A DNA stretch of 64,000 nt from sequence record PZ452602.1, one strand, 5' to 3'. The stretch is from a phage. Position 1 is the stretch's first letter; each line of letters opens with the position of its first letter. This document shows, one piece after another, positions 3,819-64,000 of this stretch. Made by a program: the position numbers and the translations under genes. The notes under the pieces were generated by a model that ran no database searches, was not told where the DNA came from, and saw only the letters and a program-made list of their open reading frames with translations.

Positions 3819-5143
3819 TTGATTTCCTCTAAATCTTTGGTGTATTCGGTAACTACATCAGTAGTTTTCCAATATTCGTTTTCTTCTTTTTTAGCTTTAG
3901 CTTCTTCAGCAAGTTTCTTCGCTTCATCGGAAGTCATATGAAAAATATTCATTCCAACTAGTTTATCAACATAAGAAGAATACATATCGATTTTCGAAAG
4001 TTCTTCGGTCAGTTCTTTACGAGTTTTACCCTGTACAACAATTTCACCTGAAATTACTTTCTTAATGAAATGTGCTTTGGCAAAGGCTAAACGAAAAGCT
4101 GATTCAGTTTCTTTGATTTTGTTATCAATTCGTTTTTGGACATAAGTTTTACGAACTTCAACAAAGTCTTTAATTAAATCAACTACGTTATCGTAAACTT
4201 GTAGTTTTCCTTTCTCATTAATAACCGTAATATTCTGGGAACGACGCTCAATCAACCCGAAGTCTTTCATAATTTTTGCATGGCGTTCTTCTTCATTATC
4301 GCTCAAAGAATATTCTTTACGGAATTTAACTTTGAATCCAAAACCATGCTCACCACAAGCATCATCCCATGTAATGAAGCCTTTATCTTCAAGTGGGTCT
4401 AAGATTTTACTCACATAAGTTTCACGATCATACTTATACGGAATCTCAGTGATATGCATTTGAGTTCGTGAAGTAAACTTGTATGTTCCACGAATTTCAT
4501 ATTGACCGTCAATCTCAACGACTTCACCACGAAATTCTGGGAATTCTACCTTCGGTTTAGTTACTTTCTTTCCTTGAAGAGCTTGTAATACAGCTTTCTT
4601 GACAGAAGAAACACTATGAGGAAGAATGTAAGTTGCATAACCAGTTGCAATACCGGAAACACCATTAAGAAGAACAGTAGGAATAATAGGCAAATAGAAA
4701 GCAGGCGGAATGTGTTCTTTATCTTGATGTACCGGAGCATATTCAGTATCTTTATATACGTTATAGAAATTTTTACTTACACGAGCAAAAATATAACGAC
4801 TTGCTGCTGCTTTTTGAACGGTACGAGAACCAAAGTTTCCTTGACCATCTAACAGAGGAAAGTTATTGTTCCAAGTGTTAGCCATCAAAGCACCTGCGTC
4901 TTGTGCAGAGTTTTCGCCATGGTGATATCCAAGGTCCGCTACACCACCTGCAATAGAAGCAAGTTTGTGAAACTTATCTTTATTTCCTCGTGCCAAATCA
5001 AGAGCTCGAGCAATAACAAATCGTTGAACTGGCTTAAATCCGTCAATCATATTTGGGATAGCACGATTTTCAACCGTGTACATAGCATAAGCCAATGCTT
5101 CATTATCAATGATACTTTTTAAATCGCGATTATTCAGTTGCAT
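3815..5143 (-). CDS. 52: DNA topoisomerase II medium subunit gp52 (GyrA-like)
   Basis: 442 aa, as recalled for T4 gp52; GyrA-like N-terminal sequence FKPVQRFVIARALDL. Confidence 0.95.
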   Translation of the reverse strand: MQLNNRDLKSIIDNEALAYAMYTVENRAIPNMIDGFKPVQRFVIARALDLARGNKDKFHKLASIAGGVADLGYHHGENSAQDAGALMANTWNNNFPLLDGQGNFGSRTVQKAAASRYIFARVSKNFYNVYKDTEYAPVHQDKEHIPPAFYLPIIPTVLLNGVSGIATGYATYILPHSVSSVKKAVLQALQGKKVTKPKVEFPEFRGEVVEIDGQYEIRGTYKFTSRTQMHITEIPYKYDRETYVSKILDPLEDKGFITWDDACGEHGFGFKVKFRKEYSLSDNEEERHAKIMKDFGLIERRSQNITVINEKGKLQVYDNVVDLIKDFVEVRKTYVQKRIDNKIKETESAFRLAFAKAHFIKKVISGEIVVQGKTRKELTEELSKIDMYSSYVDKLVGMNIFHMTSDEAKKLAEEAKAKKEENEYWKTTDVVTEYTKDLEEIK

Positions 5144-5147
5144 AAAT

Positions 5148-5288
5148 TTACCATACTAGTGAATGTAGTGCCATAATAACATCAGAAATGAAAAGCACGA
5201 CTTGAATTAATCCGAACATTATTCCGTAATATAACACTATCAATAAAATAACAAGGGTTAATGAATAGCCCAAGATTTTCTTAATCAT
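5148..5288 (-). CDS. small membrane protein (about 46 aa)
   Basis: Hand-read ORF MIKKILGYSLTLVILLIVLYYGIMFGLIQVV...; ATG overlaps ac stop; coordinates approximate. Confidence 0.4.
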   Translation of the reverse strand: MIKKILGYSLTLVILLIVLYYGIMFGLIQVVLFISDVIMALHSLVW

Positions 5289-5436
5289 TTTTTGAACCGA
5301 TACAAGCGAATAATGATAAAACTGCTAATGTCCCTTGAGCTGTTGACTGCAAAAATACTGAAGTTTCTCCAGTTATTATTGTTCCGGCGAATGAAAAGGA
5401 CCAACAGAAAAAGGCTATACCATTAACAAATTTCAT
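5281..5436 (-). CDS. ac: small membrane protein, Ac-like (acridine sensitivity) by size and position
   Basis: Hand-read 51-aa ORF MKFVNGIAFFCWSFSFAGTIITGE... with SD gaggaaaat; between stp and 52 as in T4. Confidence 0.45.
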   Translation of the reverse strand: MKFVNGIAFFCWSFSFAGTIITGETSVFLQSTAQGTLAVLSLFACIGSKND

Positions 5437-5446
5437 ATTTTCCTCA

Positions 5447-5524
5447 TTAGCGTCCGAAGACGCCTTTAGTTTTAAAATTATTACGATAGAACTGCATCAC
5501 ATGTTCGTTATGGAAATTACTCAT
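5447..5524 (-). CDS. stp: Stp peptide (activator of host PrrC anticodon nuclease / anti-restriction peptide)
   Basis: Hand-read 25-aa [28 protein letters not shown], near-identical to T4 Stp as recalled; ATG overlaps ndd stop. Confidence 0.8.
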
Positions 5525-5982
5525 TAATATGCCTGCAAAACGAATTTAAAGTTATCAGCCAACATACGGTTCATTTCTTCAAGTGTTTGATACTCAGAAT
5601 GATGATTACGAGTAAACGCTAAAGCTAACTGACCTTTACCAAATCCCGTCGTCAGAGGTTTCATCTTAGAAGCAGGCAGATAAAATACTGTGTATGCCAT
5701 ATTGTTATTTGCAATAGTACGCGCAAGCTGAGACCGGCGTTGACGAATATGACTTAGAACTGCGCTGAATCCTTGCTTAGAACGCTGATTACCAACATAA
5801 AATCGTGCAGACACACATGGATTACTAAATGGACGACCATCTAATTTGCTCACTAAAAAGTAAAATCCAGGTTTAGATAAAATGTCTTTATGTGGAGTTC
5901 CCAAAAACCACTCACCGCCCTTGATTGTACCAATAACAGTAGCGCCTGCATTATTCAGATCAGTAACAGTCATATATTTCAT
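5524..5982 (-). CDS. ndd: nucleoid disruption protein Ndd
   Basis: Track ORF 5524..6036 trimmed to internal Met ([13 protein letters not shown]...), giving about 152 aa as recalled for T4 Ndd. Confidence 0.85.
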
Positions 5983-6040
5983 ATTAATTTCCTCTAAATT
6001 ATTTTCTACTCCAAGGCCGCATGAATACGCGGCCATTAAA

Positions 6041-6256
6041 TTAATCGTCGCAGTCGACGCTCAATTCCCAAAACTCTTCTACGGTATAAGTTTCAGTATC
6101 ATTTTCAATACAGAAACGTTCATTACTGTTATTTGCTAAAGTAGCGTTAACTGTCGGTTTCTCGCTAGTGCTCTTAAGAGGTGAAATACGAATTAACTGA
6201 TCACCGTTATCTAAACAGAAAATTTCACCAACTTTTACATCTTTAAAACTTTTCAT
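6041..6256 (-). CDS. hypothetical early protein
   Basis: 71-aa ORF between ndd and denB. Confidence 0.5.
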
Positions 6257-6371
6257 AATTCACCTCAAGGAGTATAAAATCCAAATGCAGTTGTTGACCA
6301 TCCCATCCAATATGGAAAATTTGCACCAATGTAAAACATAAGAATATAAAACCAAATGTTTAGTAAATTCA

Positions 6372-6568
6372 TTATTTTACACCATTCCAAATTGTTTCAA
6401 CCACAGATTTTAAACCATTTTGATGAATATCAATTCCGACTACTGTCATCAAATAGATTCCAACTACAACTGAACCCAAGGCAAAAATTAGCATGAAAAT
6501 GAATAAAGCCGGAAAAATATTATCGAAAAACCATTCAATAAATGTAAAAGCACTGCGTTTACGCTTCA
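6372..6568 (-). CDS. small membrane protein
   Basis: Track ORF trimmed to Met with SD (MKRKRSAFTFIEWFFDNIFPALFIFMLIF...); one predicted TM helix. Confidence 0.5.
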
Positions 6569-6576
6569 TATTTTCC

Positions 6577-6690
6577 TCACATAAATCCAAAGTAAACGTT
6601 TAATACATCAATCATTAAAACGATTGGGAATATACTCAAAACTATTAGTATTATAACTACATTCCATATAGCTTTAACAATCTTTTTCAT
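6577..6690 (-). CDS. small membrane protein (37 aa)
   Basis: Track ORF 6577..6825 runs through a promoter; real start likely MKKIVKAIWNVVIILIVL... after GGAGGA SD. Confidence 0.45.
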   Translation of the reverse strand: MKKIVKAIWNVVIILIVLSIFPIVLMIDVLNVYFGFM

Positions 6691-6714
6691 TTTCTGTTCC
6701 TCCGTAGTTGATAG

Positions 6715-6752
6715 GGTAATAGTACCACGGAAGAACAGTCTTGTAAACAACT
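6715..6752 (-). promoter_or_regulatory. T4-type early promoter (GTTTAC-N18-TACTAT)
   Basis: Minus strand GTTGTTTACAAG-N-GTGGTACTAT then CTACGGAGGA SD; cassette member. Confidence 0.65.
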
Positions 6753-6933
6753 TTTTTAAAAATATTCGTAATAAATGTGAATACCAACTACTACCGCTGA
6801 AACCTGTGCAACCCACCACGCACAAGCAATAAGTACAGAATTCAAAATTTTCATAATAACCTCATTACAAAAGTAAATGTTAAACAAATTACTGGAATAC
6901 TAATTAACCAAACAAAACACCACCACAGTGAAC

Positions 6934-39962: not shown

Positions 39963-40649
39963 TTAAAAATCGTGGGTAGAATCAGCTTCAAGAGCTACTA
40001 CATAATTCGCGTGTTCACCTTCAAATTTAGCAGCACCTTGTTTACCTTTTGCCCAGAGCAGAAGTTTATAATTTCCTGGTTGCATTTTCATATTTGCCAT
40101 ATTGATAATGAAATTAAATGTATTTTCACCATCATAATCACCAAGAGTCAAAGAATATTTAACACGGGTAAGAGCAGAATCTTCTACTTTATTAAAACCG
40201 TTAATTACGATTTTACCTTCTTTTACCGTGATAGCAATTGTATCAATCTGCAGACCACGAGATACACGCAACAGTTGTTGAAGGTCTTCAGCTTTAATTT
40301 CAGTAACAACAGATGCTACCGGGAATGGAATTGGTTTATTAGGAGCAACTACTGTACTCGGATCGGCTGCTGGCCAAAAAATTGTTGAGCGGGCATCAGC
40401 AATTTTAATATTTCCATCTTCTGACTGGGAAATTTCTGCATCATCATTAACTAGAGACAGAATACCAAGAAAACCGTTTAAATCGTAAATTGCTACATCA
40501 AAATCAATAACGTCAGAAATATTTGCTTCCGCATAAGTTGTACCATTAACTGCGCGAGTCATAATAAATTGACCGGATTTAAGCATAATACCGGAGTTAA
40601 TAGTAGCGAAATTTTTAAGCAGAGCAGTAGTATCTTTAGACAGTTTCAT
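39963..40649 (-). CDS. 45: sliding clamp gp45
   Basis: 228 aa as recalled for T4 gp45. Confidence 0.95.
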   Translation of the reverse strand: MKLSKDTTALLKNFATINSGIMLKSGQFIMTRAVNGTTYAEANISDVIDFDVAIYDLNGFLGILSLVNDDAEISQSEDGNIKIADARSTIFWPAADPSTVVAPNKPIPFPVASVVTEIKAEDLQQLLRVSRGLQIDTIAITVKEGKIVINGFNKVEDSALTRVKYSLTLGDYDGENTFNFIINMANMKMQPGNYKLLLWAKGKQGAAKFEGEHANYVVALEADSTHDF

Positions 40650-40704
40650 GTAATTTCCTTCAATTCAAATGAGATTTAATTTTATAACTAATTTAATAAA
40701 GCAA

Positions 40705-41094
40705 TTAACGATTAAAATCATCCGCAATTGTTTTCGCAACAATTTGAGCAGCAATAATTAGACGTTCATCTGCATTACCACAATAATCATCTTCAAGGCG
40801 TTCACCACATGAAGTCATAATAAATTTAGCACCGGCGTTTAGGGATTCTGTAGTATGTTTGCGCATTAGTTCAATCCATTTATTACTTACTTCACGATCG
40901 ATAGCTTCATAATACGCATGACGAGCAGGTGCAGATTTAATTTTGTTCTGAATAACTTCCATTGCGTTATCAGAAAGAGACAAAACCCATGCGCGACGAA
41001 TTTTATTTTGGTTTTGTGGATTTGATTCAGAACGCACGTGTTTTGGCTGAATATCTTTTACATCAACAGTATAATTCACAGTAATTTTAGTCAT
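40705..41094 (-). CDS. rpbA: RNA polymerase-binding protein RpbA
   Basis: 129 aa; position between 46-side ORFs and 45. Confidence 0.7.
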
Positions 41095-41103
41095 AATACA
41101 CCT

Positions 41104-41292
41104 TTAGTCATAATAATCAGTAACAGTCCAAGCTTCATTTCTATTGGACATTATTTTTGTATATTCTGCTTTAAATGCATTCCTAAGCATAGATTCAGTA
41201 ACTATATGCTCTTCATTAGAAAAATTATTTCTCAGAATATATCGTTTTATTTCAGGAAAAGTTAATAAATGCTGTCCAGTTGAATATTCCAT
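41104..41292 (-). CDS. small hypothetical protein (45.2 position)
   Basis: 62-aa ORF. Confidence 0.5.
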   Translation of the reverse strand: MEYSTGQHLLTFPEIKRYILRNNFSNEEHIVTESMLRNAFKAEYTKIMSNRNEAWTVTDYYD

Positions 41293-41347
41293 GTTTTTCC
41301 TCCATAGAGATTATACTCTAATAAATTAAAGCATAATCTCTTATAAA

Positions 41348-43030
41348 TTAAACCATTACAGTAAATCGACCAACTTTCTTCATTTGAAGATGCTGACCGT
41401 ATGCTTGCGGGTCATGGTCTCTATGCGAAATAACAAAAACATTAGTATTTTTTAAACTATCTAAAATAGTTGAAATAGCTTTTACACCTTCAACGTCGGT
41501 CGCTGAATCAAAAACTTCATCAAGAATTAGCGTGTTTATTTTAACACCTGAAACTTTTTCAGCAATATCACGCCAAGTAAATAAAAGAGCAATATCAATT
41601 CGCGCTTTTTCACCTTGACTGAATGAAGCATAACTAAAATCTTCACGACCACGGGATTTAATTGTCTCATTAAATTCTTCATCTAATGTAAACACATAAT
41701 CCGCTTCCATTATTTTAAGATAATGGTTAATCTGCTTATTAAATAATGGAATGTACTTTTTAATAATAGCACCTTTAATACCAGAATCTTTGAGCATATC
41801 AGTTAAAATTCCTCGGTGGTATTTTTCCATTACTAAATTAGTTTTTGTCTTAACAATTTTATCAAGTTCTTCTTGAAGCAGTGCTATTTCATCAGCATGG
41901 TCAATAAACTCAGAAGATGCTTTTTCTATAGCTGCTTTAACTTTTTTAGCTTTATCTACCGTCGTGATTAGAGATTGCTTTTTATTGCGAATATCATTTG
42001 CCAACGACTGCTGGGTTTTAATATTATCTCGGTATTCATCAACAAGAACTTTTAAATTATCACGATGTGTTGAAAGCTGTTCAAACGAATGCGTACATTC
42101 AGAAACTTTATCTTTAATTTTAGAAACAACTTTATCACCGGAACTTAATTGTGACAAGCAGGTTGGACATAATCCACCTTCGTGATACATATTAATGACT
42201 TTATTATACGAGTCAATTTTTGATTTAATTAAAACTGCTTCTTGACCGATTTTATTAAATGCATCAGTCGGGTCTTCATCTAAAACAATATTAACTAATC
42301 TTTCATTAGCTTCTTCTATTTCCGATTTTAGCGTTCTAGCTTCTTTTGCCAAATCATCATACATATTCTGCAGACGAGTAAGGTTGTCACCAGACAATTT
42401 TTTCTGGCGTTCAACGTTATCATTATATATTTTAATTTGTTGGATAATACTATCTTTTTTAACATCAAGCACTTGGTTCTGCGAATTTAATTCACGTATT
42501 AGTGCTTTATTAAGCTTATCCATTTCAGCTAATGTTCCTACCTCAAGCAGGTCTTCCACAAGCTTTCTTCGTGCAGGGGTCGACAAACCCATGAAAGGGG
42601 TATACCCTGCTGTACCAAGGACAACAATCTGCTTGAAACTGGCATATGACATTCCGATAAGCTGTTCAAATTCTGCTTGGAAATCTTTACTGCTGGCAGA
42701 TTCATTAAGACGTGTACCATTAATGGTGATTTCGAAAACGTTTGGTTTTTGTCCTCTTTTGATATAGTACTTTTTCTCATCATATTCCATCCACAGTTCA
42801 ACTAAAAGTTCTTTCTTATTTGTGCTGTTTATTAATTGACCTTTCTTTACATCACGAAATGGCTTGCCAAAAAGCCCGAATGTGATGGCTTCTAACATAG
42901 TAGACTTACCACCGCCATTTCGTCCAGTAATAAGAGTTTTTTGAACCTTATCTAATTGAATGTCAATAGGATTTCCACCTACTGACATTATATTTTGATA
43001 CCTAACTCGGTTTAGTTTAAAATTCTTCAC
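41348..43030 (-). CDS. 46: recombination endonuclease subunit gp46 (Rad50/SbcC-like ATPase)
   Basis: 560 aa; Walker A GRNGGGKST, coiled-coil middle with CPTC zinc hook, signature/Walker B at C-terminus. Confidence 0.93.
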   Translation of the reverse strand: MKNFKLNRVRYQNIMSVGGNPIDIQLDKVQKTLITGRNGGGKSTMLEAITFGLFGKPFRDVKKGQLINSTNKKELLVELWMEYDEKKYYIKRGQKPNVFEITINGTRLNESASSKDFQAEFEQLIGMSYASFKQIVVLGTAGYTPFMGLSTPARRKLVEDLLEVGTLAEMDKLNKALIRELNSQNQVLDVKKDSIIQQIKIYNDNVERQKKLSGDNLTRLQNMYDDLAKEARTLKSEIEEANERLVNIVLDEDPTDAFNKIGQEAVLIKSKIDSYNKVINMYHEGGLCPTCLSQLSSGDKVVSKIKDKVSECTHSFEQLSTHRDNLKVLVDEYRDNIKTQQSLANDIRNKKQSLITTVDKAKKVKAAIEKASSEFIDHADEIALLQEELDKIVKTKTNLVMEKYHRGILTDMLKDSGIKGAIIKKYIPLFNKQINHYLKIMEADYVFTLDEEFNETIKSRGREDFSYASFSQGEKARIDIALLFTWRDIAEKVSGVKINTLILDEVFDSATDVEGVKAISTILDSLKNTNVFVISHRDHDPQAYGQHLQMKKVGRFTVMV

Positions 43031-60334: not shown

Positions 60335-61303
60335 TTATTTCAGAAGAGTAACCTCAGCAATTTCTTCCCAACCATTTTTGTCGGTCATAATAAAGTCAGC
60401 AAGATAAAGAGCAGTACGCAGTGAAACATTGCGTAAACGATTAACATTGACTTTCATCCATGATAATGCTTTATAAGTTTCTTCATCAGAAAGACCGCGC
60501 TTTTGCATCATGTCAGTTGAAAGAATAACATCTTCAACCCTGACCATAATTTCTTCATTAGTGTGAACACCCAAATCCAAATAAACTGAGCGGGACACTA
60601 ATGCTTGTAAATGTGGAGCAAGTTTAGTACCACGGTCTAATTCGCGGTCAATGTCAACGTTTGTGATAAAAACAATCGTTCCTTTAAATTCAAACTCACG
60701 CTCAATGCCTTTTTCTTCTAAGTAAGAAGATGCGGTGCTCCAGCAGACTTTACGGGTCTCTCCGGTGTCAAGAGCAGCTTTCAGAAGATTAAGAATGTCC
60801 ATATCAGAGAAAACATCCACATCATCAATCAAAAGGACAGAATTCTCTTCACGATTATTCCAAAGCTGTTCATAAAGACCGATACCGGAGATTTTACCGT
60901 TAATGCTTTTATATTCAATGTATCCAATATCATTTGCTTTATTTAAAGCTTTATCTAAAGAATACGTTTTACCAATACCTGCCGCACCAGAGATAATTAA
61001 TGAACGAATGTTTCCGTTAATAATACCATTCGTCATCATTCCCATAACATTAAATCTTTTATTAATGCGGGTTTTCATATCTTCATATGATTCTTTAACT
61101 TCTTCAACTTTTACACCATCATATGAAATATCTGATTTGTAAACCCAAACACCGCGACGTTTACCGTCAATTTCAACAAAAACTTTACCATCTCCTTGTG
61201 CATCTACTGGAGCATTATCTGGGAACCATTCGCCTAAGAGCTCAAAAGTTCCAGAGATTTCTTTACCGAAGTAGATACCCTTATTGATAGTTACAGTTTT
61301 CAT
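60335..61303 (-). CDS. AAA+ family ATPase with about 100-aa N-terminal domain
   Basis: Track ORF trimmed to MKTVTINKG after promoter and SD; Walker A GAAGIGKT, Walker B LLIDDVD. Confidence 0.65.
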   Translation of the reverse strand: MKTVTINKGIYFGKEISGTFELLGEWFPDNAPVDAQGDGKVFVEIDGKRRGVWVYKSDISYDGVKVEEVKESYEDMKTRINKRFNVMGMMTNGIINGNIRSLIISGAAGIGKTYSLDKALNKANDIGYIEYKSINGKISGIGLYEQLWNNREENSVLLIDDVDVFSDMDILNLLKAALDTGETRKVCWSTASSYLEEKGIEREFEFKGTIVFITNVDIDRELDRGTKLAPHLQALVSRSVYLDLGVHTNEEIMVRVEDVILSTDMMQKRGLSDEETYKALSWMKVNVNRLRNVSLRTALYLADFIMTDKNGWEEIAEVTLLK

Positions 61304-61333: not shown

Positions 61334-61371
61334 TTGTATAGTACCATAAAGCTTTATGCTTGTAAACAATT
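61334..61371 (-). promoter_or_regulatory. T4-type early promoter (GTTTAC-N18-TACTAT)
   Basis: Minus strand TTTTTCACAAAATTGTTTACAAGCATAAAGCTTTATGGTACTAT. Confidence 0.7.
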
Positions 61372-61389: not shown

Positions 61390-61415
61390 ATAAAAAAGGG
61401 AGCCCGAAGGCTCCC
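61390..61415 (-). terminator. rho-independent terminator (GGGAGCC-UUCG-GGCUCCC + U6)
   Basis: + strand aaaaaaGGGAGCCCGAAGGCTCCC; 3' of the NTase-motif gene. Confidence 0.75.
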
Positions 61416-61417
61416 TA

Positions 61418-62431
61418 TCATTTATAATAACTTCGGTGGTTTTCAAGATAGACCTTCTCAAGGAAGTCATCCCAGAAACCCATGTCTACTTTTTGCTGCA
61501 TACCATTCTTAGAAGCTTCAGTAGATGCTGCTTCTACTTGATCGACCACATCTTCCAAAAACTCTTGAACTGTTTTAAATGGATGTTTACCCAACTTCAC
61601 GTCGAGAATAAATGGAGCATCTTGGAGTGGATAAACCAAGTCACCAGTTTTGTAAATTTCCAATAGTTGAAGTCCACCACGACAAGCATGACTCAGAGCT
61701 TTCCAGTCAATACCTTCATTGGCTTCGGCCTTACGAGCACGTTCACCATATTCAGCATCTAATTTGTTCAGTGACTGCTTAAGCTCAATAAGAGAAAGCG
61801 TTGTCTGATATTTACGACCCAACACTGTGTAGAACGTTTGTGGACCTGTTTTCTCATGATTATGGAACACCCATTCACAGAATTCGTTTTCTGGAAGACG
61901 ATGCTTAATATCTTCAACTTTAGTGCGACGCTGCTTAATAGAACCATCTTCTTGGTAATCAACCCATTGCTCAGGGATTTGATTAACTACTTTCAATACA
62001 TCGCGTAATGCTGCCAAACGAGAACCCTTGACACCGTATTTAGAAGCTTGCTTGCGAACATATCCTAAATAGGATTTCATGTTAGTCGTATAAAAACGAG
62101 AACGGTTGTCTTGAATAAACTTCCACACATCAGGCAAATCAGATTTAACCACTAGTTCAGGTGGAGTGTGAAGCATATCCAATGCTACAGTTTCACCATC
62201 TGCTGCTAATTTAAAGAAATATTTAAGACTGTATAGTTCATGGTCAATATCATCTTTAGTGTTTTTAGATGATGTGTTGTTAGTGTTTTTACTCATGTGC
62301 TCTTTGACATTTCCGATAAGAATATCACGAGCAGGAGGAACGAAAATTTCTTTAAAATCTACATCAGATTCTGGGATAGAAGTTCCATAAAGATGACTAC
62401 CAAAATAGCTTTTCATTACTGTTTTCATCAT
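61418..62431 (-). CDS. hypothetical protein with N-terminal nucleotidyltransferase (pol-beta superfamily) motif
   Basis: 337 aa; YFGSHLYGTSIPESDVDF fits GS-x10-DxD; last gene of a 4-ORF overlapping-stop operon. Confidence 0.55.
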   Translation of the reverse strand: MMKTVMKSYFGSHLYGTSIPESDVDFKEIFVPPARDILIGNVKEHMSKNTNNTSSKNTKDDIDHELYSLKYFFKLAADGETVALDMLHTPPELVVKSDLPDVWKFIQDNRSRFYTTNMKSYLGYVRKQASKYGVKGSRLAALRDVLKVVNQIPEQWVDYQEDGSIKQRRTKVEDIKHRLPENEFCEWVFHNHEKTGPQTFYTVLGRKYQTTLSLIELKQSLNKLDAEYGERARKAEANEGIDWKALSHACRGGLQLLEIYKTGDLVYPLQDAPFILDVKLGKHPFKTVQEFLEDVVDQVEAASTEASKNGMQQKVDMGFWDDFLEKVYLENHRSYYK

Positions 62432-62889
62432 TCAGCCTTATATTCAATAACAGGACATACTTTAGCTTTACGAGCTTTTAAAAATTCAACGATAATCGAT
62501 TTCTTGGGTTGAATAGGAGGTAAACCTTTATACGCCCTATCAATATTTTCTATGTGTAAAGCATAATCCTTTTTCCATTTATAATCTTTATATTTTTCAT
62601 GCAAATGTGCAGGAATAACAAATGAACCAATAATAAGTAAAACAACCAAAAGCGCAAGTATAAATGCTGATGGAAGAAGAGTCCATAAACTACCGAAAAT
62701 AAGCCAACGTTGTAGGCTTTCTGCACAAATAATTGTTAGCCCTACGAGTATAGCACACCCAAAAATAGAAACGAAAAATATAGGAATGGCAATAGACCAA
62801 AAATATGCGCATAGTGTCTTAGGTCGTTGCCATTCATCGTTAAACAATTTGAATAATTTATAGTGCCAAGAGTTTTCATTAATAATCAT
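62428..62889 (-). CDS. multi-pass membrane protein
   Basis: 153 aa; three or more hydrophobic helices; 4-nt overlap with downstream NTase-motif gene. Confidence 0.55.
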   Translation of the reverse strand: MIINENSWHYKLFKLFNDEWQRPKTLCAYFWSIAIPIFFVSIFGCAILVGLTIICAESLQRWLIFGSLWTLLPSAFILALLVVLLIIGSFVIPAHLHEKYKDYKWKKDYALHIENIDRAYKGLPPIQPKKSIIVEFLKARKAKVCPVIEYKAE

Positions 62890-62891
62890 AA

Positions 62892-63413
62892 TTATCCTTT
62901 CATTGAAGGCGTAACGGTTGTTAAATATTTAATCATAGCTTCAGCTTCTGATTTTGATAATGAAATTTCTCCATTGTTTTGACGAATAGAAATAAAATCC
63001 GGATGACGGTCACCACCAGCTTTTAAAACACACATATAAGTATCAACTTCGCCTTCAATATTTGAAATGATTGAAGCAGTTCCACATGAATGCGGTTTTT
63101 GATAAATCAATACAGCTTTTCTTCCACCGTTTGATTGTTCATAGGCTTTTAATACATCAAGCAAATCAGTTCTTTTATCAATAGCTAAAATGTTATTTTC
63201 ATCTTCAATGTTAAATCCTTCGGATACTTCATAAAGCGTTACCCATAAATCACCAATGTCAATAACAGCATTTACTTTTCCATGGCTTTCAAGAGTATGA
63301 CAAATTTTCTTGATTTCGTCATAACTCATTTTAATAATATCATCTCCTTGACTAAGAAAGATGTCATTTTTAAATTCAACACGAATTAAACCGCTTCCAC
63401 TTGAAATAAACAT
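62892..63413 (-). CDS. hypothetical protein (paralog pair member)
   Basis: 173 aa; C-terminus ...EAEAMIKYLTTVTPSM similar to neighbour. Confidence 0.55.
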   Translation of the reverse strand: MFISSGSGLIRVEFKNDIFLSQGDDIIKMSYDEIKKICHTLESHGKVNAVIDIGDLWVTLYEVSEGFNIEDENNILAIDKRTDLLDVLKAYEQSNGGRKAVLIYQKPHSCGTASIISNIEGEVDTYMCVLKAGGDRHPDFISIRQNNGEISLSKSEAEAMIKYLTTVTPSMKG

Positions 63414-63419
63414 ATTTCC

Positions 63420-63974
63420 TCACTTTGAAATCATAGTTGGAATAACAGAATCAAGATAAGTCTTTAGTGCAATAGCTTCGTCTTTGGTAAATGTGACAAT
63501 ATGTGCTCGAAAATCATCAATTTGACGAATAGTTAAGACATCTCCATCTTCATAACATTTTGATACGTTTAAAACAGTTTCATCATTCTGATTGCAAGCG
63601 TTAGTAATAATAGCATTGCAATTTTTAAACCATTTTAAACTATGTTTTCTTTCATTAGAATAATAAAAATATTTAATCTTATCTATAAAACTATCCCAAT
63701 GGATAACTGATAAGCATATTGACTCGCTTTCAATATTAAATCCTGGGCATGAAGAATAAAAATGAATTTTATGCTCATCATTAATGCTTACAATTTTATC
63801 AGTATAAGGATTTTCAATTTTGGTTAAATGAATGATTTCACTAGGCGTAAAATACAGCATATCGTCTTCTTGTGTCAAACGATACATATTATTTACTTTT
63901 TCTATAGCCAATTCACCAAAAAGTGAACTAACTTCTAATACTAATCGTTTCATATTAATCCTTTTTAATGGCAT
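63420..63974 (-). CDS. hypothetical protein (paralog pair member)
   Basis: 184 aa; C-terminus ...DEAIALKTYLDSVIPTM; shared PGFNIE/EGFNIE motif. Confidence 0.55.
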   Translation of the reverse strand: MPLKRINMKRLVLEVSSLFGELAIEKVNNMYRLTQEDDMLYFTPSEIIHLTKIENPYTDKIVSINDEHKIHFYSSCPGFNIESESICLSVIHWDSFIDKIKYFYYSNERKHSLKWFKNCNAIITNACNQNDETVLNVSKCYEDGDVLTIRQIDDFRAHIVTFTKDEAIALKTYLDSVIPTMISK

Positions 63975-64000
63975 GAATTTGTTCTAAAATTTTAGAGTAT

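Follow-up and report, generated by a model that had tools for sequence, protein, structure and literature searches.

What does a nucleotidyltransferase (NTase) do at the end of a tightly packed gene block of a T-even phage, and does the small membrane protein encoded directly before it belong to the same system? The question is raised by a 2.7-kb block in a 64,000-nucleotide stretch of phage DNA (sequence record PZ452602.1), which we refer to in its full length as the window. An initial annotation, made from the sequence alone, had read this block as a four-gene operon, had noticed a minimal polymerase-β (Pol-β)-type signature in its last, 337-residue protein, and had likened the pairing with a membrane protein to signalling or nucleotide-modifying modules of the cGAS/DncV, MNT or OAS type. 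In the following, we describe the protein as NrdC.11, a divergent ‘long’ member of the RlaP family (PF10127) with a predicted Pol-β NTase fold. Its function is, somewhat more probably than otherwise, best explained by the addition of nucleotides, without a template, to damaged 3' ends of RNA ahead of their ligation by the Pnkp/Rnl1 pathway. NrdC.11 is a catalogued gene product, already known, and our analysis adds no new entity; what it adds is a structural model, the predicted catalytic residues D23, D25, D63 and D85, and the place of this branch beside canonical RlaP in RNA-repair operons.

The identity of the protein follows from a comparison with the nrdC.x and mobD.x region of T4. It shares 98.5% of its residues with T4 NrdC.11 (NP_049709, ‘nucleotidyltransferase’), which is equally long and lies at the same place in the genome, upstream of nrdC.10. 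The Pfam model RlaP is matched with 41 bits against a cut-off of 23 bits (E = 2.3e-10), residues 7–135 corresponding to positions 23–142 of the 249 profile positions, and the same threshold is also passed by 100 of 101 NrdC.11 homologues. The match to PHROG 388, ‘nucleotidyltransferase’, has an E-value of 4.6e-136. At 50% identity and E <= 1e-3, the family comprises 3296 clusters of mostly full-length proteins of about 320 residues, and two distant homologues are encoded on short metagenomic contigs together with unannotated small open reading frames (ORFs). When NrdC.11 was aligned with 100 diverse representatives (101 sequences in all), G11, S12, Y132, K244, H248, R251 and P268 proved invariant; D23 and D25 are retained in 100 of the 101, and the positions of D23, D25, D61, D63, D85 and D242 are each acidic in at least 97%. 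Given Pfam, PHROG and this conservation, a chance match is excluded, and the GS-x10-DxD signature (YFGSHLYGTSIPESDVDF) on which the initial annotation had built is real. Many database entries nevertheless mislabel NrdC.11 homologues as ‘thioredoxin’, ‘HNH homing endonuclease’ or ‘integrase’, labels that were evidently carried over from the neighbouring nrdC and mobD genes.

The predicted structure leads to the same family. The AlphaFold2 model of NrdC.11 (predicted local distance difference test score, pLDDT, 94.4; predicted template modelling score, pTM, 0.84) displays the α/β NTase fold of the Pol-β superfamily. In this model, β1 (residues 3–10) leads into the F10-G11-S12 turn, β2 (24–31) opens with D23-V-D25-F, and β4 (62–68) opens with D61 and D63; a helical region comes next, with a β-rich insert (155–209) and long helices (214–336). 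A further catalytic acidic residue, which the initial annotation had suggested looking for downstream in an h[DE]h context, is found in I-D63-H at the start of β4, a position that is acidic in all 101 sequences, and D85 provides an additional one. When the family was compared by hhalign with 18 canonical RlaPs, GS, D23xD25, D63 and D85 fell on the invariant G30-S31, D42xD44, D75 and E97. Judged by its strand position, its conservation and this alignment, D63 is the predicted third catalytic carboxylate. NrdC.11 is likewise predicted to be catalytically competent, with D23, D25 and D63 as its putative metal-site residues, and is, as far as sequence and model can tell, a true NTase of the Pol-β superfamily. 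The same fold is found in BFVD in many phage and giant-virus ‘nucleotidyltransferases’.

A low-complexity loop rich in Asn, Thr and Ser (SKNTNNTSSKNTKDD; residues 47–60, window positions 62260–62290, minus strand) connects β3 with the strand carrying D61 and D63. It holds the nearly invariant N57 within a conserved KNT motif and is absent from canonical RlaP.

Activities for the family have been reported from Pseudomonas, where two RlaPs add one or two nucleoside monophosphates, or deoxyadenosine monophosphate, to the 3'-OH of RNA; they favour the 5' half of cleaved tRNA and are inactive on DNA, and it was proposed that RlaP restores nucleotides lost to ‘smart’ ribotoxins such as RloC (December 2025 preprint, 10.64898/2025.12.29.696909). 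T4 NrdC.11 was placed in PF10127 in the same work, in cluster 5 of a sequence similarity network (SSN) and under a label that names no function (10.64898/2025.12.29.696909). With NrdC.11, canonical RlaPs, such as PfRlaP and PaRlaP, have in common the motif series of the NTase core (GS, DxD, D and [DE]) and, in overall layout, an N-terminal NTase domain, a C-terminal helical domain and a final helix.

Relatives of the long form are also found in cellular genomes, and their neighbourhoods point to RNA repair. A scan of representative genomes yielded 80 bacterial and archaeal loci (L012–L091) with an NrdC.11-like gene of 31–53% identity, for which we counted the neighbours within 5 kb and confirmed their assignment by Pfam. 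A canonical full-length RlaP lies nearby at 26 of the 80 loci, in most cases immediately following the NrdC.11-like gene on the same strand. RtcB is a neighbour at nine loci, Pnkp (kinase-phosphatase-ligase) at eight and a Ro60-type vWA protein at two, and 16 loci have at least one of these three. For instance, the gene order in Nitrosospira (L045, 558–11383) is Ro60(TROVE+vWA)-RtcB-RtcA-NrdC.11-like-RlaP-Hen1-AAA-DUF2201-Pnkp, and that in Asticcacaulis (L061, 2338–7277) is Pnkp-NrdC.11-like-RlaP-Macro, the two NTase genes (5001–5984 and 5981–6802) overlapping by 4 nt. The Pnkp, RtcB and RlaP neighbourhoods of the cellular relatives support a role in RNA repair independently, and for this sub-clade specifically.

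The Pnkp/Rnl1 pathway of T4 is the case on which the notion of RNA repair as a counter-defence was founded. Because its relatives sit in bacterial RNA-repair operons, NrdC.11 most likely mends cut tRNAs. We infer that it would use RNA as its substrate, would add one or two nucleotides and would act against nucleotide-excising nucleases, in the following way. A host anticodon nuclease of the RloC type would cut a tRNA and trim at least one nucleotide from the cut end; NrdC.11, holding two metal ions on D23, D25 and D63, would extend the free 3'-OH by one or two nucleotides without a template; T4 polynucleotide kinase-phosphatase would heal the ends, and RNA ligase 1 would seal them. The gene itself would be expressed as the final cistron of a long polycistronic transcript of the early or middle class. 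Host nucleases that excise nucleotides, such as RloC, should defeat plain re-ligation, and a nucleotide-restoring phage enzyme would close this gap; NrdC.11 is the obvious candidate for restoring the missing nucleotide, and it comes from a branch that differs from the characterised RlaPs. The initial annotation had considered an NTase co-transcribed with a membrane protein unexpected as an early function of a phage, a view that does not hold for a long-catalogued T4 gene from an RNA-repair-associated family (10.64898/2025.12.29.696909; PMC7824862). T4 can lose the nrdC.11–mobD.3 segment under laboratory conditions (PMC9825161), which is consistent with a conditional anti-defence role.

Several observations weigh against this assignment. 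The characterised RlaPs belong to SSN cluster 1a, and NrdC.11 to the separate cluster 5 (10.64898/2025.12.29.696909). The hhalign comparison with canonical RlaPs is restricted to the NTase core, of which it covers about 90 residues (E = 1.4e-4, probability 53%). NrdC.11 is about 80 residues longer than canonical RlaP and has the β-rich insert, and its C-terminal half is not alignable: the last 200 or so residues, including the insert, match no family (Pfam search with 203 residues), and the helices 214–336 gave no alignment to the C-terminal domain of either the Pfam RlaP model or the 18 canonical RlaPs. The locus itself is also silent, as the window contains no homologue of the bacterial Pnkp, RtcB or RlaP used as seeds and no RNA-repair gene next to nrdC.11. 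The T4 genes pseT and rnlA lie elsewhere in the genome. Furthermore, the long form probably has a role in bacteria that is not redundant with that of canonical RlaP, and may differ from it in chemistry, because the two sit in tandem in bacterial operons; this tandem arrangement finds no mention in the preprint on the Pseudomonas enzymes (10.64898/2025.12.29.696909). Lastly, the closest solved fold in the set that we searched is not that of an RNA-extending enzyme but that of HalB (PDB 9dbh), which makes protein-primed poly-dA; this set evidently did not include the PfRlaP crystal structure, and HalB may be merely the nearest NTase within it.

The tandem arrangement also bears on what else NrdC.11 might do with RNA. 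It could rebuild the 3'-CCA end of tRNAs, govern the decay of host or phage RNAs by tailing them, or serve as a specificity or partner subunit. The frequent stop/start overlap between the long and the canonical gene, as in Asticcacaulis, fits such a division of labour, as do the C-terminal domains that cannot be aligned between the two forms and their distribution among phages, in which canonical RlaP is confined to 80 records of jumbo phages and T4-like phages have the long form only. RlaP has been noted to track RNA ligases in jumbo phages (Iyer et al. 2021, PMC7824862). Since no specific alternative RNA substrate has direct support, we rate another RNA role of this kind as rather unlikely. 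A related idea is conceivable, although we would not lean towards it, namely that long NrdC.11-type NTases are functionally distinct partners of canonical RlaP, of which T-even phages have kept the long form only; they might use a HalB-like chemistry, processive or protein-primed, or restore one specific excised anticodon nucleotide. In bacterial operons with Pnkp/Hen1 and with RtcB/RtcA, the long and the canonical gene directly follow one another. If the idea is true, the classic T4 Pnkp-Rnl1 pathway of tRNA repair would gain a third enzymatic step.

How much weight should be given to the resemblance to HalB? Searches of the PDB by sequence, with the single protein and with profiles of its full length and of its N-terminal domain (the latter at E <= 10), returned no solved relative, and the likeness is one of fold. 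If it reflected function, NrdC.11 would synthesize an oligodeoxynucleotide without a template, possibly from a protein primer, for instance as a decoy by which the DNA-gated channels of Hailong-type systems stay closed, countering defence. HalB has 217 residues, is 16% identical to NrdC.11 without any match at the sequence level, and belongs to a host defence system, whereas NrdC.11 is a phage protein. HalB has as its partner a tetrameric channel bearing a cytoplasmic crown; next to NrdC.11 lies instead a hairpin of 153 residues that is missing in many relatives, including T4 and the 80 cellular loci, and whose model is too poor for a comparison with HalA. Moreover, the cellular relatives of NrdC.11 are found in RNA-repair operons and not beside channels. 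In view of these differences, and of the fold set that may have left HalB as simply the nearest NTase, we consider a HalB-like activity very improbable.

Further fold matches include an NTase-like protein (3c18), kanamycin and aminoglycoside NTases, LinB, Tam41 and MNT. They would suggest that NrdC.11 nucleotidylates a protein or small molecule after the fashion of the ANT/KNTase enzymes, LinB or an MNT-type AMPylase; a host factor could be the target, or else an antibiotic-like compound. The ANT/KNTase, LinB and MNT matches are weak, with E-values of about 0.01–0.5 and template modelling (TM) scores of 0.2–0.3, and both the Pfam assignment to RlaP and the genomic context of the relatives lead to RNA repair. 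Nucleotidylation of such targets is thus improbable.

This leaves the signalling module proposed initially, in which the NTase and the membrane protein would form a cGAS/DncV-, OAS- or MNT-type unit, with a signal passing in either direction. Two features speak for it: the reading frames of the pair share 4 nt, and the genes stand side by side in Tequatrovirus, RB69 and JS10 and only one or two genes apart in one Klebsiella and one Acinetobacter phage. On the side of the enzyme, however, NrdC.11 shares with CD-NTases (cGAS/DncV), OAS and MNT only the membership in the Pol-β superfamily. These proteins have another size and domain plan, no sequence or fold match to them rises above background, and no effector or HEPN partner is encoded here. 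Among the fold matches of NrdC.11 there is no CD-NTase, OAS or Mab21 structure, and MNT appears at rank 33 (E = 0.5). PADLOC, run on five proteins of the locus, matched no defence-system model, and we rejected the reading of the locus as a CD-NTase system or another known defence system. A minimal MNT was rejected as well: such NTases have about 100–150 residues and an adjacent HEPN gene, whereas NrdC.11 has 337 residues with a large C-terminal domain, and no HEPN gene adjoins it.

On the side of the membrane protein, the pairing turns out to be dispensable. The gene is unlinked from nrdC.11 in Vibrio D480, Aeromonas phiWae14 and AS-yj; T4 has kept nrdC.11, lacks the membrane gene and carries mobD, encoding an HNH endonuclease, in the same place; phage records with NrdC.11 number 1564 as against 895 with the membrane protein; and none of the 80 cellular loci with an NrdC.11-like gene has a homologue of the membrane protein, MobD.1 or NrdC.10. 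Given the split pairs, the absence from T4 and the empty cellular loci, the pairing is therefore a matter of synteny: judging from these comparisons, it reflects a gene order that a single phage subfamily has conserved and is not a functional module. The NTase half of the initial interpretation thus stands and its signalling half does not; a signalling module is largely refuted, and we regard it as extremely improbable. In the tRNA-repair reading that we favour, the membrane protein and the two MobD.1 paralogues upstream of it would be syntenic passengers and not functional partners of NrdC.11.

The membrane protein itself, initially described as multi-pass, has two long hydrophobic segments (residues 24–60 and 62–98), so that the membrane character is retained and the number of predicted helices is two. 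Its AlphaFold2 model is poor (pLDDT 62.6, pTM 0.28). Invariant residues precede the first transmembrane segment (S7, W8, H9, P23, L26, C27 and Y29) and recur near the C-terminus (K143, C145 and P146); their position on both predicted cytoplasmic tails hints at a common metal- or ligand-binding site.

The anatomy of the block is largely as first described (Table 1). It is 97–98% identical to its counterparts in RB14, wV7 and T6, and near full-length copies occur in 431 phage records. All four minus-strand ORFs are borne out at their boundaries, and their packing is indeed tight, although the spacing of 0–4 nt given before is not exact: 6 nt separate the first two ORFs and 2 nt the next two, whereas the last two overlap by the 4 nt ATGA. 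NCBIfam had no match for any of the four proteins.

Table 1. Features of the nrdC.11 block and its borders; coordinates refer to the window.
Feature	Coordinates	Strand	Length (aa)	Basis or remark
Upstream ORF, 3' end (homologue of RB14ncORF100c)	63955..64000	-		translation ends in YSKILEQIHAIKKD before the stop codon; open to window edge
MobD.1 (y05I-like) copy A	63420..63974	-	184	Pfam T4_y05I_N E = 5e-38, T4_y05I_C E = 9e-21
MobD.1 (y05I-like) copy B	62892..63413	-	173	Pfam T4_y05I_N E = 8e-34, T4_y05I_C E = 2e-22
Small two-helix membrane protein	62428..62889	-	153	PHROG 944 ‘membrane protein’, E = 2e-50
NrdC.11, divergent ‘long’ RlaP-family (PF10127) NTase, predicted Pol-β fold	61418..62431	-	337
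Intrinsic terminator	61391..61416	-		8-bp G+C-rich stem, UUCG tetraloop, U6; terminator scan, fold
Promoter-like site TTTACA-17-TACTAT with TG	61338..61366	-		predicted; consensus scan only

The strong UUCG terminator noted initially is found 1 nt past the nrdC.11 stop codon as AGGGAGCC-UUCG-GGCUCCCU followed by U6; it folds with -17.7 kcal/mol (z = -4.0), and none of 200 shuffled sequences was as stable. The putative nrdC.11 message would end here. While four packed genes and their terminator are thus confirmed, they are not a self-contained operon, because a further ORF crosses the window edge upstream of them. It ends in EYSKILEQIHAIKKD with a stop codon at 63957–63955, 1 nt ahead of an ATG at 63953; the RB14 sequence is identical across this end, and an ORF of 88 residues is annotated there. 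With these four genes the window shows only the 3' part of a longer polycistronic block, which extends from mobD.5 to nrdC.11 in T4 and RB14. Inside the block, no consensus promoter of the sigma-70 or MotA type is conspicuous (consensus scan and MotA-type pattern, 61400–64000).

Over the whole window, the MotA-box pattern of middle promoters (TGCTTNA-N11-13-TANNNT) occurs 15 times, compared with 4.9 expected occurrences. None of these matches lies inside the nrdC.11 block; they cluster on the minus strand at about 40–46 kb (e.g. 40561–42471).

Beyond the terminator, by about 30 nt, lies the promoter-like site ahead of nrdC.10, from which we infer that a separate nrdC.10 transcript would start, marking the boundary of the unit. 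The nrdC.10 gene (60335–61303, minus strand) encodes a P-loop/AAA-like protein with the motif GAAGIGKT that stays under every Pfam threshold. It does not occur at the bacterial NTase loci, and it adjoins nrdC.11 in RB69 and in one Acinetobacter phage (61% identity).

The genes upstream of the membrane protein differ from those of T4, where the order is mobD.1, mobD (a free-standing HNH homing endonuclease) and nrdC.11 (PMC2988022). In the window, as in RB14, RB32, T2, T6 and wV7, a MobD.1 paralogue and the membrane protein fill the slot of the T4 mobD gene upstream of nrdC.11. The RB14 annotation lists the block accordingly as mobD.1, RB32ORF097c (‘similar to mobD.1’), RB32ORF096c (‘replaces mobD’) and nrdC.11 (‘nucleotidyltransferase’). 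Both upstream ORFs contain the y05I domain pair (PF24449 and PF24448) above threshold, and at 27% identity (E = 9e-11) the two copies are diverged paralogues in tandem, compared with a single MobD.1 gene in T4; copy B has no T4 counterpart. Copy A is 45% identical to RB69 MobD.1 from residue 10 onwards. Its true start is probably Met8, the ATG at 63953, because the upstream ORF ends 1 nt before it; this would yield a protein of 177 residues. An AAGGA Shine-Dalgarno sequence precedes this ATG, and the Pfam and RB69 alignments of copy A begin at about residues 8–11. The family to which both copies belong carries the label ‘putative transcription factor’. Compared with the window, mobD.1 of RB14 lacks 1 nt (gaaactgttt-aaacg, at about 8270–8290 of L001), which cuts the annotated gene to 384 nt; either the RB14 gene would be a pseudogene or its record would contain a sequencing error.

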